Source: Lentisphaerae bacterium WC36 (GTDB lineage Bacteria > Verrucomicrobiota > Lentisphaeria > Victivallales > SZUA-371). From it: DNA of 64,000 bases. The notes under the pieces were generated by a model that made no database searches, was not told where the DNA came from, and was given only the letters and a program-made list of their open reading frames with translations. The position numbers and the translations under genes are program-made. The first letter of the stretch is position 1; the number at the start of each line of letters is the position of its first letter. The stretch lies in NCBI GenBank assembly GCA_020683205.1, contig CP085689.1, positions 2,162,230 through 2,226,229 on the forward strand. Direction: 5' to 3'. Below are positions 54,111-64,000 of this stretch, one piece after another.

Positions 54111-54344
54111 CTATTCTTCCTTAACTTTTATAAGAATCAATGTATTTATTATATAGAATTGTTGTGTAGCGATAACATTGCCCGAGTATTTAAAATAATT
54201 TTTAGGAATACCACCAATTTTTAAACTTTCATATCCTATTAATGTTATTTTTTTACCATTTTGACTTTTTAATTTTTTATAAAAGGGCATACCAATATTA
54301 ATTTTTTGTTTAAGTTTTTTCCCATTTATTTCTTCCACATTCAT
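54111..54344 (-). CDS. Small hypothetical protein (77 aa), possibly an immunity gene at the end of the Rhs-CT array
   Basis: Lies downstream of the last toxin cassette; no homology recognised. Confidence 0.3.
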   Translation of the reverse strand: MNVEEINGKKLKQKINIGMPFYKKLKSQNGKKITLIGYESLKIGGIPKNYFKYSGNVIATQQFYIINTLILIKVKEE

Positions 54345-54391
54345 TGTTAATTGATTATATTCTCCTTTTATATTCTTTTTTGCATATAGTA

Positions 54392-54589
54392 TTACTCTCT
54401 CTTAAGAGTCAAAATGGTACCGAAAGAATGTTGTAGTTTTGGATATATACCTAAAGTTTTACTACCTCCTAAATTTTCATCTGATTGTTTACTTAATAAT
54501 TGATTATTTAGGTTATTGATTTTATACTGGCATGAAACCATCATTAGTACGGTAACAATTATATATAGAAATACTATATTTTTTTTCAT
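54392..54589 (-). CDS. Small lipoprotein (65 aa), candidate immunity protein for cassette 1
   Basis: Signal/lipobox MMVSC; starts 22 nt after the toxin-1 stop. Confidence 0.35.
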   Translation of the reverse strand: MKKNIVFLYIIVTVLMMVSCQYKINNLNNQLLSKQSDENLGGSKTLGIYPKLQHSFGTILTLKRE

Positions 54590-54611
54590 ATTGATAAGTC
54601 CTTATATAGAT

Positions 54612-55499
54612 TTAGTAATTACTGCATGTTTTACCTTTTGATTTAAAAGTAGGATTACTACATTGAATACACCATGCTTCAGAATTAAAGTCTGCATAGC
54701 TTTCTTTCCACTCCTCTTCAGTACTTTCATAAATTGTTCCACTTCTTATTGGATAATCAGGATGATAATCACCTGTACCATCATCATCTATATCGGGATT
54801 GTGATATTGGTCAGCATGTGTAATAGAACCATCTGGATTTACATAACCATAATCAAACTTAATACTATCTTCATCCATACCTTCCTTATCCCAATTACTA
54901 AAATCAGCTTTGCCTGTTTTAGGGTCAAACGTTACATCAGGATTTATACCATCTTTGCCTTTATCATTCCAAAAGTGAACTGAAAACATTTTTGGACAAA
55001 CCTTGTCTTTGCATTTATTTTTCATTTCTCCCTGAGCATCTGTTGCTTGTTGTTTTGTTTTATAGCAATTATCATGATTTTCAATAACTCCAGTATTAGC
55101 ACAAACAACTCCGACACATCCCCTATTTATTTGTTTTCTCACCCAAGGTGCATATATAATATTCCCAGGATTTTCTTTAAATTTAGGGTGTGCATCAAAA
55201 TATTTTTTTAAATAATCTTCCAACGACATTTCTGTTCTTAATCCTAAAATATCATAGAAAACAATTGGATTATTGTACGAATTCCCATAAATGTTTTCTC
55301 CACCTTTTTCTTGGATTGGGTCACGTTTTAACCATTTTCCTGTGCTTGGGTTGTAATAACGGTAATTGTAATAGATTAATCCTGTTTCTTTTTCAGCATA
55401 TTCACTACTGAATTTGAACACGTTTTCAACATTCTCATCTGTTTTTGCTAATTGTCCAAATGGGCTATAATCGTATTTATTAGCGATTTCTCCTGTTGT
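54612..55499 (-). CDS. Rhs-family C-terminal orphan cassette 1; homology begins right after a stop at about 55499, with the first ATG at 55421
   Basis: …LTTGEIANKYDYSPFGQLAKTDENVENVFKFSSEYAEKETGLIYYNYRYYNPSTGKWLKRDPIQEKGGENIYG…DILGL followed by a unique ~200-aa Cys-rich C-terminal domain. Confidence 0.65.
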   Translation of the reverse strand, partial: TTGEIANKYDYSPFGQLAKTDENVENVFKFSSEYAEKETGLIYYNYRYYNPSTGKWLKRDPIQEKGGENIYGNSYNNPIVFYDILGLRTEMSLEDYLKKYFDAHPKFKENPGNIIYAPWVRKQINRGCVGVVCANTGVIENHDNCYKTKQQATDAQGEMKNKCKDKVCPKMFSVHFWNDKGKDGINPDVTFDPKTGKADFSNWDKEGMDEDSIKFDYGYVNPDGSITHADQYHNPDIDDDGTGDYHPDYPIRSGTIYESTEEEWKESYADFNSEAWCIQCSNPTFKSKGKTCSNY

Positions 55500-55565
55500 T
55501 AATTATCTTATCCTTGTTAATCACATCCTAAATATTTAAACTTCTTTTATACTTTTTTTACAAAA

Positions 55566-55594
55566 AACATCGATCAAAAATTTTAATCGATGTT
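55566..55594 (-). terminator. Hairpin (aacatcgat…atcgatgtt) followed by a T-run on the minus strand, downstream of the immunity gene 55620..55835
   Basis: 9-bp perfect inverted repeat; the minus-strand 3' flank is TTTTTGTAAAAAAA. Confidence 0.4.
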
Positions 55595-61786: not shown

Positions 61787-62222
61787 GGTTATAATTAATT
61801 ATTTCAAAATTATTTCCTTTTTTCAAAATGGAAAACAATAAACTTGGTGTAGGGTAATTCATTGTTTCAACTTTCGTTATGCCTTCATCAAGTTCCTCAA
61901 GAGGTATAAGAACTAATTTAGGAAAGTTAAAACATAAATTGGAGTTAACCTTACTTAATAGTCCATCCATAATATTAGCAATAATTATTTTATTTTTATG
62001 ATTACTAATTCCATAAAGATTGATTTGATCCATTGAGTCATGGAATGATGAAACCTCCAATGCTATGTATTTTTTTTCAAAAATTTTAACTGCTGTTATA
62101 TTATCTACAGTTATACTTTTTACTCTAGGAGAACTTAATTTTCTTATTTCTCCAAAAAACCATATATTTCCATATATTAAAATAAAAAGAAATAAAAGTG
62201 TAATAATTAATTTTTTTTTCAT
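61758..62222 (-). CDS. Secreted/anchored protein (154 aa), candidate immunity protein for cassette 6
   Basis: Signal peptide; starts 17 nt after the toxin-6 stop. Confidence 0.5.
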   Translation of the reverse strand: MKKKLIITLLFLFILIYGNIWFFGEIRKLSSPRVKSITVDNITAVKIFEKKYIALEVSSFHDSMDQINLYGISNHKNKIIIANIMDGLLSKVNSNLCFNFPKLVLIPLEELDEGITKVETMNYPTPSLLFSILKKGNNFEIINYNRERVTIKEK

Positions 62223-62239
62223 TTTAAAGTCCTTTTTTT

Positions 62240-63181
62240 CTAATTTTGATTTGTTATATTTCTAGATAATGAACTAGGATTGGGAGTGAAGTGTCGTCCA
62301 AAATGCATGAGATTATCTGGTGGTAAATTATCTTTCCCTGTTGAGTCATATTCTGGAGTCCCTGTCCCAGATATATTTTCTCCTGTATGTTTATTCCATT
62401 CATTTATGGCATAAGTTGCGCAATTACTTGTTACACCGTCATATGGAGGTGGAGTTGTTTTTTTAAAGTCACAAATTGTAGCACATTTTTTAATTATTTT
62501 TCCAGTTTTTTTAGAGTTTAAGTCTAAATCATCTTTAAGACCGTTTCGATAATTTGCATGTGTGTGTTTTTCTTTTGTCCTTAAATTCACAACATATATC
62601 CATGCATGACCAACGCTTCCAGATGTAGCTGCTGGTTGCACCATTATACATATAATAAATTTATCTTTAGCCTTGCCTCCTTTACAACATTGTTTTAGTC
62701 TATTTATCTTTTCACTCCCACAGCAACCGCTTTTAGTATCTTTTTCATCTTTTTTCTTTTGTTTTTCTTCTTTTTCTAGCTCCTCTAATTCACGTCGTGC
62801 TTTCCATGATAAATATGAAGATAACCCTAAATCATCTGAATAATTCACGGGTTTGTTAACAACAAAGCCATACAAATTTGTTCCGCCTTTTTCTTGGATT
62901 GGGTCTCTGTTGATCCATTTACCTGTGCTTGGGTTGTAATAACGGTAATTGTAATAAATTAAGCCTGTTTCTTTTTCGGCATATTCACTACTGAATTTGA
63001 ATACGTTTTCAACATTCTCATCTGTTTTTGCTAATTGTCCAAACGGGCTATAATCGTATTTATTAGCGATTTCTCCTGTTGTTAAATCAATCAACTGCGT
63101 GATATTTTTATTGCCATCAGCGATGTAATTAAATACCACACCATCTTTTTCTAATGCCAGTAAATTATCACTCAATAGCAT
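62240..63181 (-). CDS. Rhs C-terminal orphan cassette 6 (ATG start 5 nt after the stop of the upstream gene)
   Basis: MLLSDNLLALEKDGVVFNYIADG…YYNYRYYNPSTGKWINRDPIQEKGG…DDLGL followed by a Lys-rich linker and a C-terminal domain with His (GHAWIYV) …Cys (SNCATY). Confidence 0.65.
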   Translation of the reverse strand: MLLSDNLLALEKDGVVFNYIADGNKNITQLIDLTTGEIANKYDYSPFGQLAKTDENVENVFKFSSEYAEKETGLIYYNYRYYNPSTGKWINRDPIQEKGGTNLYGFVVNKPVNYSDDLGLSSYLSWKARRELEELEKEEKQKKKDEKDTKSGCCGSEKINRLKQCCKGGKAKDKFIICIMVQPAATSGSVGHAWIYVVNLRTKEKHTHANYRNGLKDDLDLNSKKTGKIIKKCATICDFKKTTPPPYDGVTSNCATYAINEWNKHTGENISGTGTPEYDSTGKDNLPPDNLMHFGRHFTPNPSSLSRNITNQN

Positions 63182-63186
63182 TAAAT

Positions 63187-63942
63187 TTATCGCCCCAAAT
63201 AAGACTTTAAATATTTATGGGTAAAAGCATCATAAGCAAAATACAAAGTTCCACCAGCAGTAAACTTATTGGGGTTACTCCAACTTGGTTGATCACTAAT
63301 ATTTACAATAATTATATGGCTACTATAGTGCTCTAATTTTAAATAATCTTTAACCAGAACATCATATTTGTAGCAATTACTACTGTTATAAAGTGTTACT
63401 CCTTTAACAGACTTTATAAACATGTCAAAATCTTTAAGTTTTGCTCGTTTAAGACTATTGGTAATTAAAATATCAATTATTTTTCTAAAATTAGACGTTA
63501 TTTTTAAAGGTATTTGCTTCATGGTGTCAACTTTTTTAAAATAATTATTTTTATAGTCAAAATGAATTATTTTAGTAATTTTAGCATTTCTGTAATCAGC
63601 TAATAAGATAATGTCTCCAAAACTTCTTTGAGTTGAACACAACTGAATAACAACAAATGCATTTGAGGAAATGTTTTCTGACAAATCATGATTGTAATAA
63701 CTTTTCAACATTTTGCCGACATTTTTCCTTCTCATGAGTTCAATTCTCGCTAAAACATATTTTTTTTCAATTAGTTTGTTTTCTTTTGCAAATTTGTCGA
63801 CAATATCTAAATAAGATACAATTTTAAGTTCTGTATATGAAAAAGATTTTATCTTGCTTTTTTCTTTTGAACTGCAAAAATATAAAGTAACTAGCAAAAT
63901 TAATATCAAAAATATCAAAGTAATTATCATTTTCTTTTTCAT
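63187..63942 (-). CDS. Membrane-anchored protein (251 aa), paralogue of 58230..58955; presumably the immunity protein of a toxin gene ending just upstream (about 63961, beyond or at the window edge)
   Basis: AAGGAG RBS; TM helix; paralogous blocks shared with 58230..58955. Confidence 0.5.
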   Translation of the reverse strand: MKKKMIITLIFLILILLVTLYFCSSKEKSKIKSFSYTELKIVSYLDIVDKFAKENKLIEKKYVLARIELMRRKNVGKMLKSYYNHDLSENISSNAFVVIQLCSTQRSFGDIILLADYRNAKITKIIHFDYKNNYFKKVDTMKQIPLKITSNFRKIIDILITNSLKRAKLKDFDMFIKSVKGVTLYNSSNCYKYDVLVKDYLKLEHYSSHIIIVNISDQPSWSNPNKFTAGGTLYFAYDAFTHKYLKSYLGR

Positions 63943-64000
63943 TTTTTATTCTCCTTATTTTTATATGAAATTTTTCCATGCTCTGTTACAGCATCTGTAC

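Follow-up and report, generated by a model that had tools for sequence, protein, structure and literature searches.

The window analysed here is a stretch of 64,000 nucleotides (nt) from the Lentisphaerae bacterium WC36 genome (contig CP085689.1, positions 2,162,230 to 2,226,229 of the forward strand). A preliminary description, made from the sequence alone, recognised at its right-hand end (54111-64000) an array of six orphan Rhs toxin cassettes, each with an immunity gene. Our analysis indicates that this region very probably belongs to a chromosomal Rhs polymorphic-toxin locus, of which it covers the distal two thirds and in which orphan toxin tips and their immunity genes form a reservoir for a Sec-exported protein with payloads acting on the cell envelope. 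The array of toxin orphans and immunity genes is real, while the number six is an effect of the window edge: the array holds ten orphans and relics. WC36 is a cold-seep isolate (PMC11361711); the paper on this strain and its supplements do not mention Rhs and contain no expression data for these genes.

The six open reading frames (ORFs) listed originally lie on the minus strand at 54612-55421, 55839-56588, 57142-58137, 58971-59909, 60851-61786 and 62240-63181. All of them match the Rhs_assc_core model TIGR03696 (62-85 bits, E 5e-17 to 4e-24, cut-off 32.5 bits), which bears out the proposed Rhs repeat-associated core end and answers the doubt whether the shared block might belong to a non-Rhs family. 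In the alignment, the block common to the six ORFs reads ...NYIADGNKNITQLI...YDYSPFGQL...FKFSSEYAEKETGL(I/V)YYNYRYY(N/D)P..GKW..RDPI.E.G...Y......D.(L/F)G(L/Q). At the DNA level it forms a 300-nt direct repeat in six copies with 65-82% identity, far above chance. Divergence starts exactly past D-x-(L/F)-G-(L/Q) in all copies, and the Pro of DPxGL is absent. Beyond the block, the C-terminal domains (CTs, or toxin “tips”) of 104-209 amino acids (aa) cannot be aligned, and no tip matches another of the six (BLASTP, 1e-3), so that their complete divergence into unrelated domains was described correctly.

Window coordinates are used throughout. Cassettes inside the window are designated c1-c6, those beyond position 64000 oA-oD, and those of a second locus X1-X7; “imm” denotes an immunity ORF, SD a Shine-Dalgarno sequence and TM a transmembrane segment. 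The region beyond the window edge was read from the chromosome of Lentisphaerota bacterium WC36G (CP151801.1; 3.66 Mb), the proteins being identical in WC36; for the region retrieved as L001, the window position equals 73943 minus the L001 position. The features are as follows:

63939-64000, minus strand: last 62 nt (3' end) of the oD toxin gene, DUF4329-type, cut by the window edge
63939-64826 (window-equivalent; L001 9117-10004), minus strand: full oD gene, Rhs core end with PF14220
63187-63942, minus strand: imm_oD, 251 aa, N-terminal signal or anchor; 4-nt overlap with the oD stop, AAGGAG 8 nt upstream
62240-63214 (open frame), minus strand: cassette 6, core end with a 194-aa CT, predicted TseH/YiiX-like permuted papain fold
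61758-62222, minus strand: imm_c6, 154 aa, hydrophobic anchor (TM/signal 3-26); 17 nt separate it from the toxin stop, with AAGGA 7 nt upstream
60851-61798 (open frame), minus strand: cassette 5, core end with a 197-aa CT; TIGR03696 E 1.1e-22
59942-60763, minus strand: imm_c5, 273 aa, N-terminal anchor (TM 4-23) and ankyrin repeats; AAGG 7 nt upstream
58971-59951 (open frame), minus strand: cassette 4, core end with a DUF4329 (Tox-JAB-2) CT, PF14220, E...HTH motif
58230-58955, minus strand: imm_c4, 241 aa, signal or anchor (hydrophobic 1-26); 15 nt separate it from the toxin stop, with AAGG 9 nt upstream
57142-58152 (open frame), minus strand: cassette 3, core end with a 202-aa CT; TIGR03696 E 3.4e-23
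56656-57135, minus strand: imm_c3, 159 aa, signal of lipoprotein type (...IFTSC); ATG at 57132, preceded by AGGAG at 6 nt
55839-56594 (open frame), minus strand: cassette 2, core end with a 104-aa Cys-rich CT; TIGR03696 E 2.6e-23
55620-55835, minus strand: imm_c2, 71 aa with two TM segments; start codon GTG, without an SD, absent from public annotation
54612-55502 (open frame), minus strand: cassette 1, shortest core-end arm with a 209-aa CT; TIGR03696 E 5e-17, no usable start codon
54111-54589, minus strand: imm_c1, disrupted; pieces 54392-54589 (65 aa, lipoprotein signal) and 54111-54344 (77 aa) in differing frames
about 53032-53148, minus strand: degenerate Rhs core-end relic, reading NKNVYPLIAMSSGPIANRYDYSPFSKLI up to a stop; marks where the array ends distally

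Hardly any intergenic DNA separates the cassettes, and at 61758-61798 the 3' end of imm_c6 runs about 40 nt into the open frame of cassette 5. The full-length YD-repeat parent, which was expected to lie past 64000, was found there on the same strand: a protein of 1962 aa with RHS_repeat and TEN_YD-shell matches, whose gene ends about 5.9 kb beyond the edge. Its last 200 residues hold the same conserved block, the core ends in a D-x-(L/D)-G-L motif, and its own hydrophobic tip of 146 aa is followed by a 207-aa immunity ORF with three TM segments. Because this parent and four further cassettes were found past the window edge, locus 1 consists of one main gene, ten orphans and a relic, arranged in the order main gene with its own tip and immunity gene, oA-oD, the six window cassettes and the relic. 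It contains 11 FKFSSE anchors, and over both loci there are at least 19 core ends.

The parent begins with MKIRKYNKIVSSLLFGIFAIANITPTQLFA|CDEEY..., that is, with a charged n region, a hydrophobic h region and an A-x-x-C c region (...QLFA|C), after which a Cys/Gly/Ser-rich linker follows. Read directly from the sequence, this N-terminus appears to be a classical signal peptide, which may include a weak lipobox. A signal peptide combined with RHS repeats is a recognised export class, “T2SS/Sec-dependent” (T2SS, type II secretion system; Zhang et al. 2012, PMC3482391, Table 1), and the parent, with its signal peptide, RHS repeats and polymorphic tip, fits the definition of that class. Pfam and NCBIfam scans revealed no PAAR, VgrG, SpvB or TcdB in the first 700 aa of the parent or in six upstream proteins, and within 10 kb upstream at either locus there is no VgrG, Hcp, chaperone or other type VI secretion system (T6SS) gene. 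Nothing T6SS-like was seen among nine large ORFs scanned at 29.8-50.9 kb of the window, with 1-29.8 kb outside the scan; these ORFs are of housekeeping or catabolic type (glutamate synthase, type III glutamine synthetase, a sigma-54 activator, sulfatase and GH35). The delivery determinants had been anticipated beyond 64000 as “PAAR/T6SS or other”; since no PAAR, VgrG or T6SS genes were found near the parent, the T6SS branch is locally unsupported, while the signal peptide speaks for the “other” branch.

Among the upstream proteins, most of which have signal peptides, are a FlgD-Ig-like protein of 357 aa, two with TSP3 repeats (189 and 827 aa) and one with HEAT repeats. The two TSP3 ORFs lie 220 nt apart (5618-8890 in L017, a region on the locus 1 side) and resemble one interrupted gene; their repeats resemble the Myxococcus surface proteins CglD/MtsD at the repeat level only, far under the family cut-offs.

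A small ORF stands 3-87 nt downstream of the tip in each of the six cassettes (gaps of 17, 87, 15, 6-9, 3 and 22 nt from cassette 6 to cassette 1), and every immunity ORF possesses an N-terminal signal or anchor, a lipobox (imm_c3, ...FTSC; imm_c1a, ...MVSC) or TM segments (imm_c2). The good SD ascribed to all of these genes is found in five of six, as an AAGG(A)(G)-type sequence 6-12 nt upstream; imm_c2 has no SD, and imm_c1 is split. Over the whole of locus 1, an SD is present before 10 of the 12 immunity ORFs and before none of the orphan ATG candidates. imm_oD and imm_c4 are paralogues (37% identical, E 2e-46), and imm_c5 matches PF12796 (Ank_2) barely over the cut-off (E 4.7e-6, 27.5 bits). 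Scans of four immunity proteins against NCBIfam and of three against Pfam gave zero matches.

In five orphans and both main genes, the core block contains AGGTGA followed 7 nt later by a TTG in frame, in a stretch coding for WLGDNLL (minus strand, 56446-56465, 58043-58062 and 59866-59885, or L001 17454, 15857 and 14034; also in oB and oD), and the public annotation starts several orphans at this TTG. The promoter scan gave no enrichment over shuffles; terminator-like sites numbered 9 versus 3.6 expected from shuffles. Three perfect or near-perfect hairpins were seen: one of 14 bp at 60783-60813, within the 87 nt that separate imm_c5 from the c5 tip; one at 55566-55594, terminator-like with a T-run, directly after imm_c2; and one at 56582-56608, overlapping the first codons of cassette 2.

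None of the toxin domains had been considered assignable from the sequence; three of the six could be assigned, namely c4 (DUF4329/Tox-JAB-2), c6 (TseH-like) and, as a candidate, c1 (transglutaminase-like). The c4 tip matches PF14220 (DUF4329) with E 1.3e-19 and 70.7 bits (cut-off 28.6), and DUF4329 has been equated with Tox-JAB-2, the motif of which consists of E, H[ST]H, S and D (Zhang et al. 2012, PMC3482391). The c4 and oD tips are 46% identical and both keep IEYCG and WHTHG. The Imm-NTF2 partner expected for Tox-JAB-2 was not detected. When the DUF4329 profile was compared with the PDB, only BCL11A zinc fingers were matched, which we judged to be a Cys/His compositional artefact.

The c1 tip has a paralogue in oA, the first orphan (69% identical); X7 and one metagenomic Rhs tip (P0125) complete this family, which conserves the motifs GCVGV, FDYG and THxxxYH. 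A profile of three sequences (c1, oA and P0125) matched the Streptomyces microbial transglutaminase in the PDB with E 1.8e-6. About 120 residues align, including the catalytic positions Cys64 (YGCVGV) and Asp255 (NFDYG), and THxxxYH corresponds to the region of His274. The single c1 sequence reached only E 0.016 in the same comparison, no family, transglutaminase models included, was matched by cassette 1 in Pfam at E values up to 0.1, and the AlphaFold2 (AF2) model built from three sequences was unusable (pLDDT 41.5). Because Pfam gave no match and the AF2 model was of this quality, we call the c1 tip a candidate transglutaminase-like papain-fold enzyme and not a member of the family. The Streptomyces mobaraensis transglutaminase (PDB 1IU4) has 331 aa, compared to about 210 aa of the c1 tip.

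For c6, word-seeded searching found no relatives and the single sequence gave nothing meaningful against the PDB; an exhaustive HMMER search recovered 25 relatives, many of them behind Rhs-type core ends and none covered by Pfam. The AF2 model from the HMMER alignment (pLDDT 85.5) has the predicted permuted papain fold of the NlpC/P60 superfamily, with a conserved His located before the Cys (HAWI and NNC.TYA motifs). We therefore regard c6 as a TseH/YiiX-like permuted papain fold and a putative cell-wall hydrolase fold. For TseH, toxicity in the periplasm and lysis of permeabilised cells have been described (PMC4453574). The c6 tip differs from TseH (VCA0285 of Vibrio cholerae) and YiiX in having an extra Cys-rich N-terminal extension (CCG...QCCK), no detectable sequence similarity to them and no Pfam model match. 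Assignment of c6 to LRAT/PPPDE was unsupported at the sequence level and holds at the fold level only.

The c2 tip is characterised by 9 Cys and three hydrophobic segments (3-21, 39-57 and 59-85); the main tip and Xmain, the tip of the main gene at the second locus, are similar in character, and we infer that all three act on membranes. By sequence look, the c3 tip is beta-rich and the c5 tip mainly helical; both have no Pfam match, no meaningful PDB match in single-sequence searches and no homologue among the best 8000 candidates of a word-seeded search. Apart from self matches, word-seeded searches with the concatenated tips retrieved only the oA paralogue and a single Logan protein (for c2, among the best 8000 candidates). 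The main tip, oB, oC and X1-X4 had zero Pfam matches. Across both loci, a tip contains 3-13 Cys.

Distant shell relatives in the contig collection are only 23-28% identical to the parent, and the closest database protein to its shell is a paralogue of 1925 aa encoded in the same genome at 2.83 Mb. This second locus (L016, CP151801.1 2830520-2856297) is near-identical to locus 1 (L017) from about 4542 to about 15372, in a BLAST block of 10,834 nt with 500 identities per 500 nt in most of the 500-nt bins. The duplicated segment of about 10.8 kb comprises the genes for the HEAT protein, the TSP3 and FlgD-Ig proteins and the Rhs core up to the conserved block, past which L016 and L017 differ in the tip, the immunity gene and the orphan array. 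At least seven orphans (8 anchors) are present in L016 within the 10 kb retrieved; X5 and its immunity protein are 93-95% identical to oC and its partner, and X7 is the third member of the c1/oA tip family. The gene of an upstream 1230-aa PA14/fn3/TSP3 protein is duplicated at the second locus too (99.8%).

Each orphan retains the last 270-440 nt of the core, with 65-100% identity to other copies, and shares with the main gene homology arms of 84-260 nt upstream and about 180 nt downstream of FKFSSE. By analogy with Salmonella orphans (PMC4436062), arms of this length should be enough for RecA-type exchange. When the block is compared in 90-nt segments, the nearest neighbour of each copy shifts from segment to segment, within and between the loci; segments matching at 100% connect c3 with oA and, in the next segment, c3 with oC, and also c4 with the main gene. 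Such a mosaic is the trace expected from repeated recombination or gene conversion among cassettes.

Signs of decay are concentrated at the distal end of the array. Cassette 1 had been said to begin mid-motif; in fact an open frame reaches back to 55502, so that LTTGEIANKYDYSPFGQLAKTDENVENV is encoded in front of FKFSSE, the ORF list having merely begun at the first GTG, yet the cassette has the shortest homology arm and no start codon there. The C-terminal piece of imm_c1 aligns at 39% identity (E 1e-13) with residues 95-166 of imm_oA, which is intact and has 176 aa, and the offset computed from the coordinates places the two pieces in two frames. The relic belongs to the direct-repeat family D3, with 78-81% identity to four cassettes and 60% to the other two, and gives tblastx E values of 1e-8 to 1e-12 against all core ends. 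Its stop is followed by KIVVFFYTKN, which resembles the start of a long-arm cassette (IMVFFYNKYKL); the relic with this segment is probably a deletion scar at the old array end. Between cassette 1 and the relic there are three small ORFs (53144-53954, minus strand): a Cys-rich one of 92 aa, one of 93 aa with a signal peptide, and one of 78 aa with a 4-nt overlap with the previous stop; they have no homologue in either array and may be the remains of another tip/immunity pair.

The array end is directly flanked by a gene for a 228-aa DUF1573 protein with a signal peptide (52247-52933). Further away are a protein of 886 aa with pentapeptide repeats (45535-48195) and a nitrogen-assimilation cluster (34952-45268) that includes type III glutamine synthetase, the large and small subunits of glutamate synthase and a divergent GAF/sigma-54 activator. 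No link of the pentapeptide or DUF1573 protein to the Rhs locus was seen.

The testable features that define an Rhs polymorphic-toxin locus with orphan modules are present here: the core domain, an upstream shell gene and DNA homology between the orphans and the main gene. We suggest that the Rhs protein would be exported via Sec and not loaded on a T6SS spike, and that the orphans may be a largely silent reservoir which can be re-attached to the full-length gene by homologous recombination. The immunity genes, nearly all with their own SD, would be translated independently and guard the cell against sibling toxins. Silent tips together with independently translated immunity genes are favoured because the immunity ORFs have SDs and the orphan ATGs have none, and because a product started at the TTG would be devoid of leader and shell. 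Envelope targets are proposed for the payloads on the grounds of the extracytoplasmic or membrane immunity ORFs, the Cys-rich tips, the Sec leader, the putative TseH-like and transglutaminase-like folds and the hydrophobic character of individual tips. The array itself may have been built by C-terminal displacement, in which recombination at the 3' end of the full-length gene brings in a new tip/immunity pair and the older pair is pushed downstream, a process that yields long arrays (PMC8125069). Under this model the distal cassettes should be the oldest and the most decayed, and the state of the c1 start, the split imm_c1 and the relic fits this expectation.

Several observations weigh against this interpretation or restrict it. 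The predicted cleavage motif is D-x-L-G-L, not the canonical DPxGL. Tox-JAB-2 may be a nuclease (Zhang et al., PMC3482391), an activity that would be hard to reconcile with an immunity protein outside the cytoplasm; c3 and c5 obtained no assignable activity from Pfam, PDB or homologue searches; and the link of c6 to TseH is structural only (Foldseek E 0.07), with no sequence match. The scan for T6SS genes was local, the rest of the 3.66-Mb genome being outside its scope. The AGGTGA-N7-TTG sites could permit independent translation of orphans. Arm length is not monotonic with the distance from the main gene, and simple one-at-a-time displacement is therefore not the whole history. Finally, we infer toxicity, neutralisation, the export route and the frequency of recombination, all four.

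Two other explanations concern the delivery and the targets of the Rhs protein. The Rhs protein might ride on a VgrG/PAAR spike encoded elsewhere, with the N-terminal hydrophobic segment serving as the TM helix of an effector: most of the characterised Gram-negative Rhs toxins are T6SS cargo (PMC4436062), the scans did not cover the whole genome, and the best structural match of one tip is the T6SS effector TseH. We consider this very unlikely, as the N-terminus has the n-h-c organisation of a classical signal peptide ending in ...QLFA|C, the first 700 aa contain no PAAR, the 10 kb upstream at both loci and the nine large ORFs at 29.8-50.9 kb of the window contain nothing of T6SS type, the flanking proteins all carry signal peptides themselves, and the distant shell relatives are likewise without T6SS neighbours. 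Still less credible, to the point of being nearly negligible, is a Tc-like (TcB/TcC) or other anti-eukaryotic YD-shell toxin instead of an interbacterial weapon. The core-end profile does match TcC/YenC2 and teneurin-like YD-shell chains in the PDB, and Lentisphaerae are among the phyla listed with the TcdB/TcaC route (PMC3482391); however, Pfam and NCBIfam found no SpvB, TcdB or TcA domains in or near the gene, every tip is adjoined by a small cognate ORF, a hallmark of toxins able to strike the producer's own kind, and the tips include putative activities of bacterial-envelope type. Within the regions scanned, the features of T6SS-linked Rhs effectors and of the Tc toxin TcB/TcC were not found.

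The role of the orphans is open to two further explanations. They could be short toxins expressed independently from internal starts such as the conserved AGGTGA-N7-TTG: in five orphans this strong SD-like sequence stands 7 nt ahead of a TTG in frame, genes are annotated publicly from these starts, and the toxin frames are intact in all six window cassettes. The site is, however, coding sequence of the main gene (W-L-G-D-N-L-L) and conserved for that reason; it is absent from oA, oC, c5, c6 and c1, and the products, without signal peptide and shell, would stay in the cytoplasm while the immunity proteins are extracytoplasmic, which makes stand-alone expression distinctly improbable. More weight, though still doubtful, is due to the idea of a defensive island, where selection keeps the immunity genes against the toxins of related strains and the tips are decaying passengers. 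It agrees with the SDs on the immunity ORFs and their lack on the orphan toxins, and defensive retention of orphan pairs was proposed for Gilliamella and Bacteroidales (PMC8125069). Against it, of the ten orphan toxin frames nine run uninterrupted over their full length and the core end persists at 65-100% DNA identity, which is unexpected for neutral passengers, while c1, the clearly decayed cassette, lost its immunity gene too. Defensive retention complements the reservoir model and does not exclude it. A bolder reading, in which the upstream proteins of the co-duplicated 10.8-kb module form a T6SS-independent apparatus for surface display or transfer, the payloads act on the envelope only, and c3 and c5 make up at least two new toxin families, seems to us unlikely as a whole.

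The organisation was rightly compared with the canonical toxin/immunity arrangement of the E. coli and Dickeya orphan clusters, since the core domain, the parent and the recombination handle are all present. In the enterobacterial rhs systems (RhsA-E of E. coli K-12, Salmonella Typhimurium LT2 and Dickeya dadantii 3937), the YD-repeat gene likewise ends in the repeat-associated core, followed after a (D)PxGL-type motif by a polymorphic tip with the immunity gene directly downstream, and the downstream orphans keep a core piece that serves as a handle for recombination; in LT2, exchange by recombination between orphan and main gene was shown experimentally (PMC4436062). These systems differ from WC36 in having no signal peptide, in using the T6SS via VgrG/PAAR, in the motif (DPxGL against DxLGL) and in array length, with one to few orphans compared to ten plus relics at one WC36 locus and at least seven at the other; in WC36, the signal peptide is accompanied by no T6SS gene nearby, and the immunity proteins are all extracytoplasmic or membrane-bound. 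The arrays of the bee-gut symbionts Snodgrassella alvi and Gilliamella (PMC8125069) also include several full-length copies with one common core and many toxin clusters known only as orphans, but they are T6SS-associated and belong to host-gut Proteobacteria, whereas WC36 is a free-living deep-sea member of the Planctomycetes-Verrucomicrobia-Chlamydiae superphylum with a Sec-type leader. WapA of Bacillus subtilis (PMC4436062, PMC3482391) shares with the WC36 protein the signal peptide, the YD/RHS shell, the polymorphic tip and the cognate immunity gene, yet it is the wall-associated protein of a monoderm, its characterised tips being tRNases with cytoplasmic immunity proteins, while in the diderm WC36 the payload/immunity set looks envelope-directed. 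Thus, the enterobacterial and bee-symbiont arrays are closest to the WC36 locus in architecture, and the WapA-type signal-peptide RHS toxins in export class.

What is unusual in WC36 is the host itself, a cultured deep-sea Lentisphaerota, together with the number of core ends, the duplication of a 10.8-kb module and the uniformly extracytoplasmic immunity set combined with few relatives of most tips. These points leave the category of the locus unchanged, as its architecture and evolutionary logic are those of the textbook.

To our knowledge, interbacterial antagonism has hardly been studied in this phylum and habitat, and the delivery of Rhs proteins by routes other than the T6SS in Gram-negative-type cells is poorly understood. 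Here, a cultured Lentisphaerota isolate from a deep-sea cold seep gives at least about 30 kb at two loci to at least 19 Rhs toxin tips, and its Sec-type leader, together with the extracytoplasmic immunity set in a diderm, points to a non-T6SS delivery route. The array represents a compact source of toxin/immunity pairs, most tips having no Pfam model and few or zero relatives, and the near-identical loci with differing tips provide a natural record of tip swapping.

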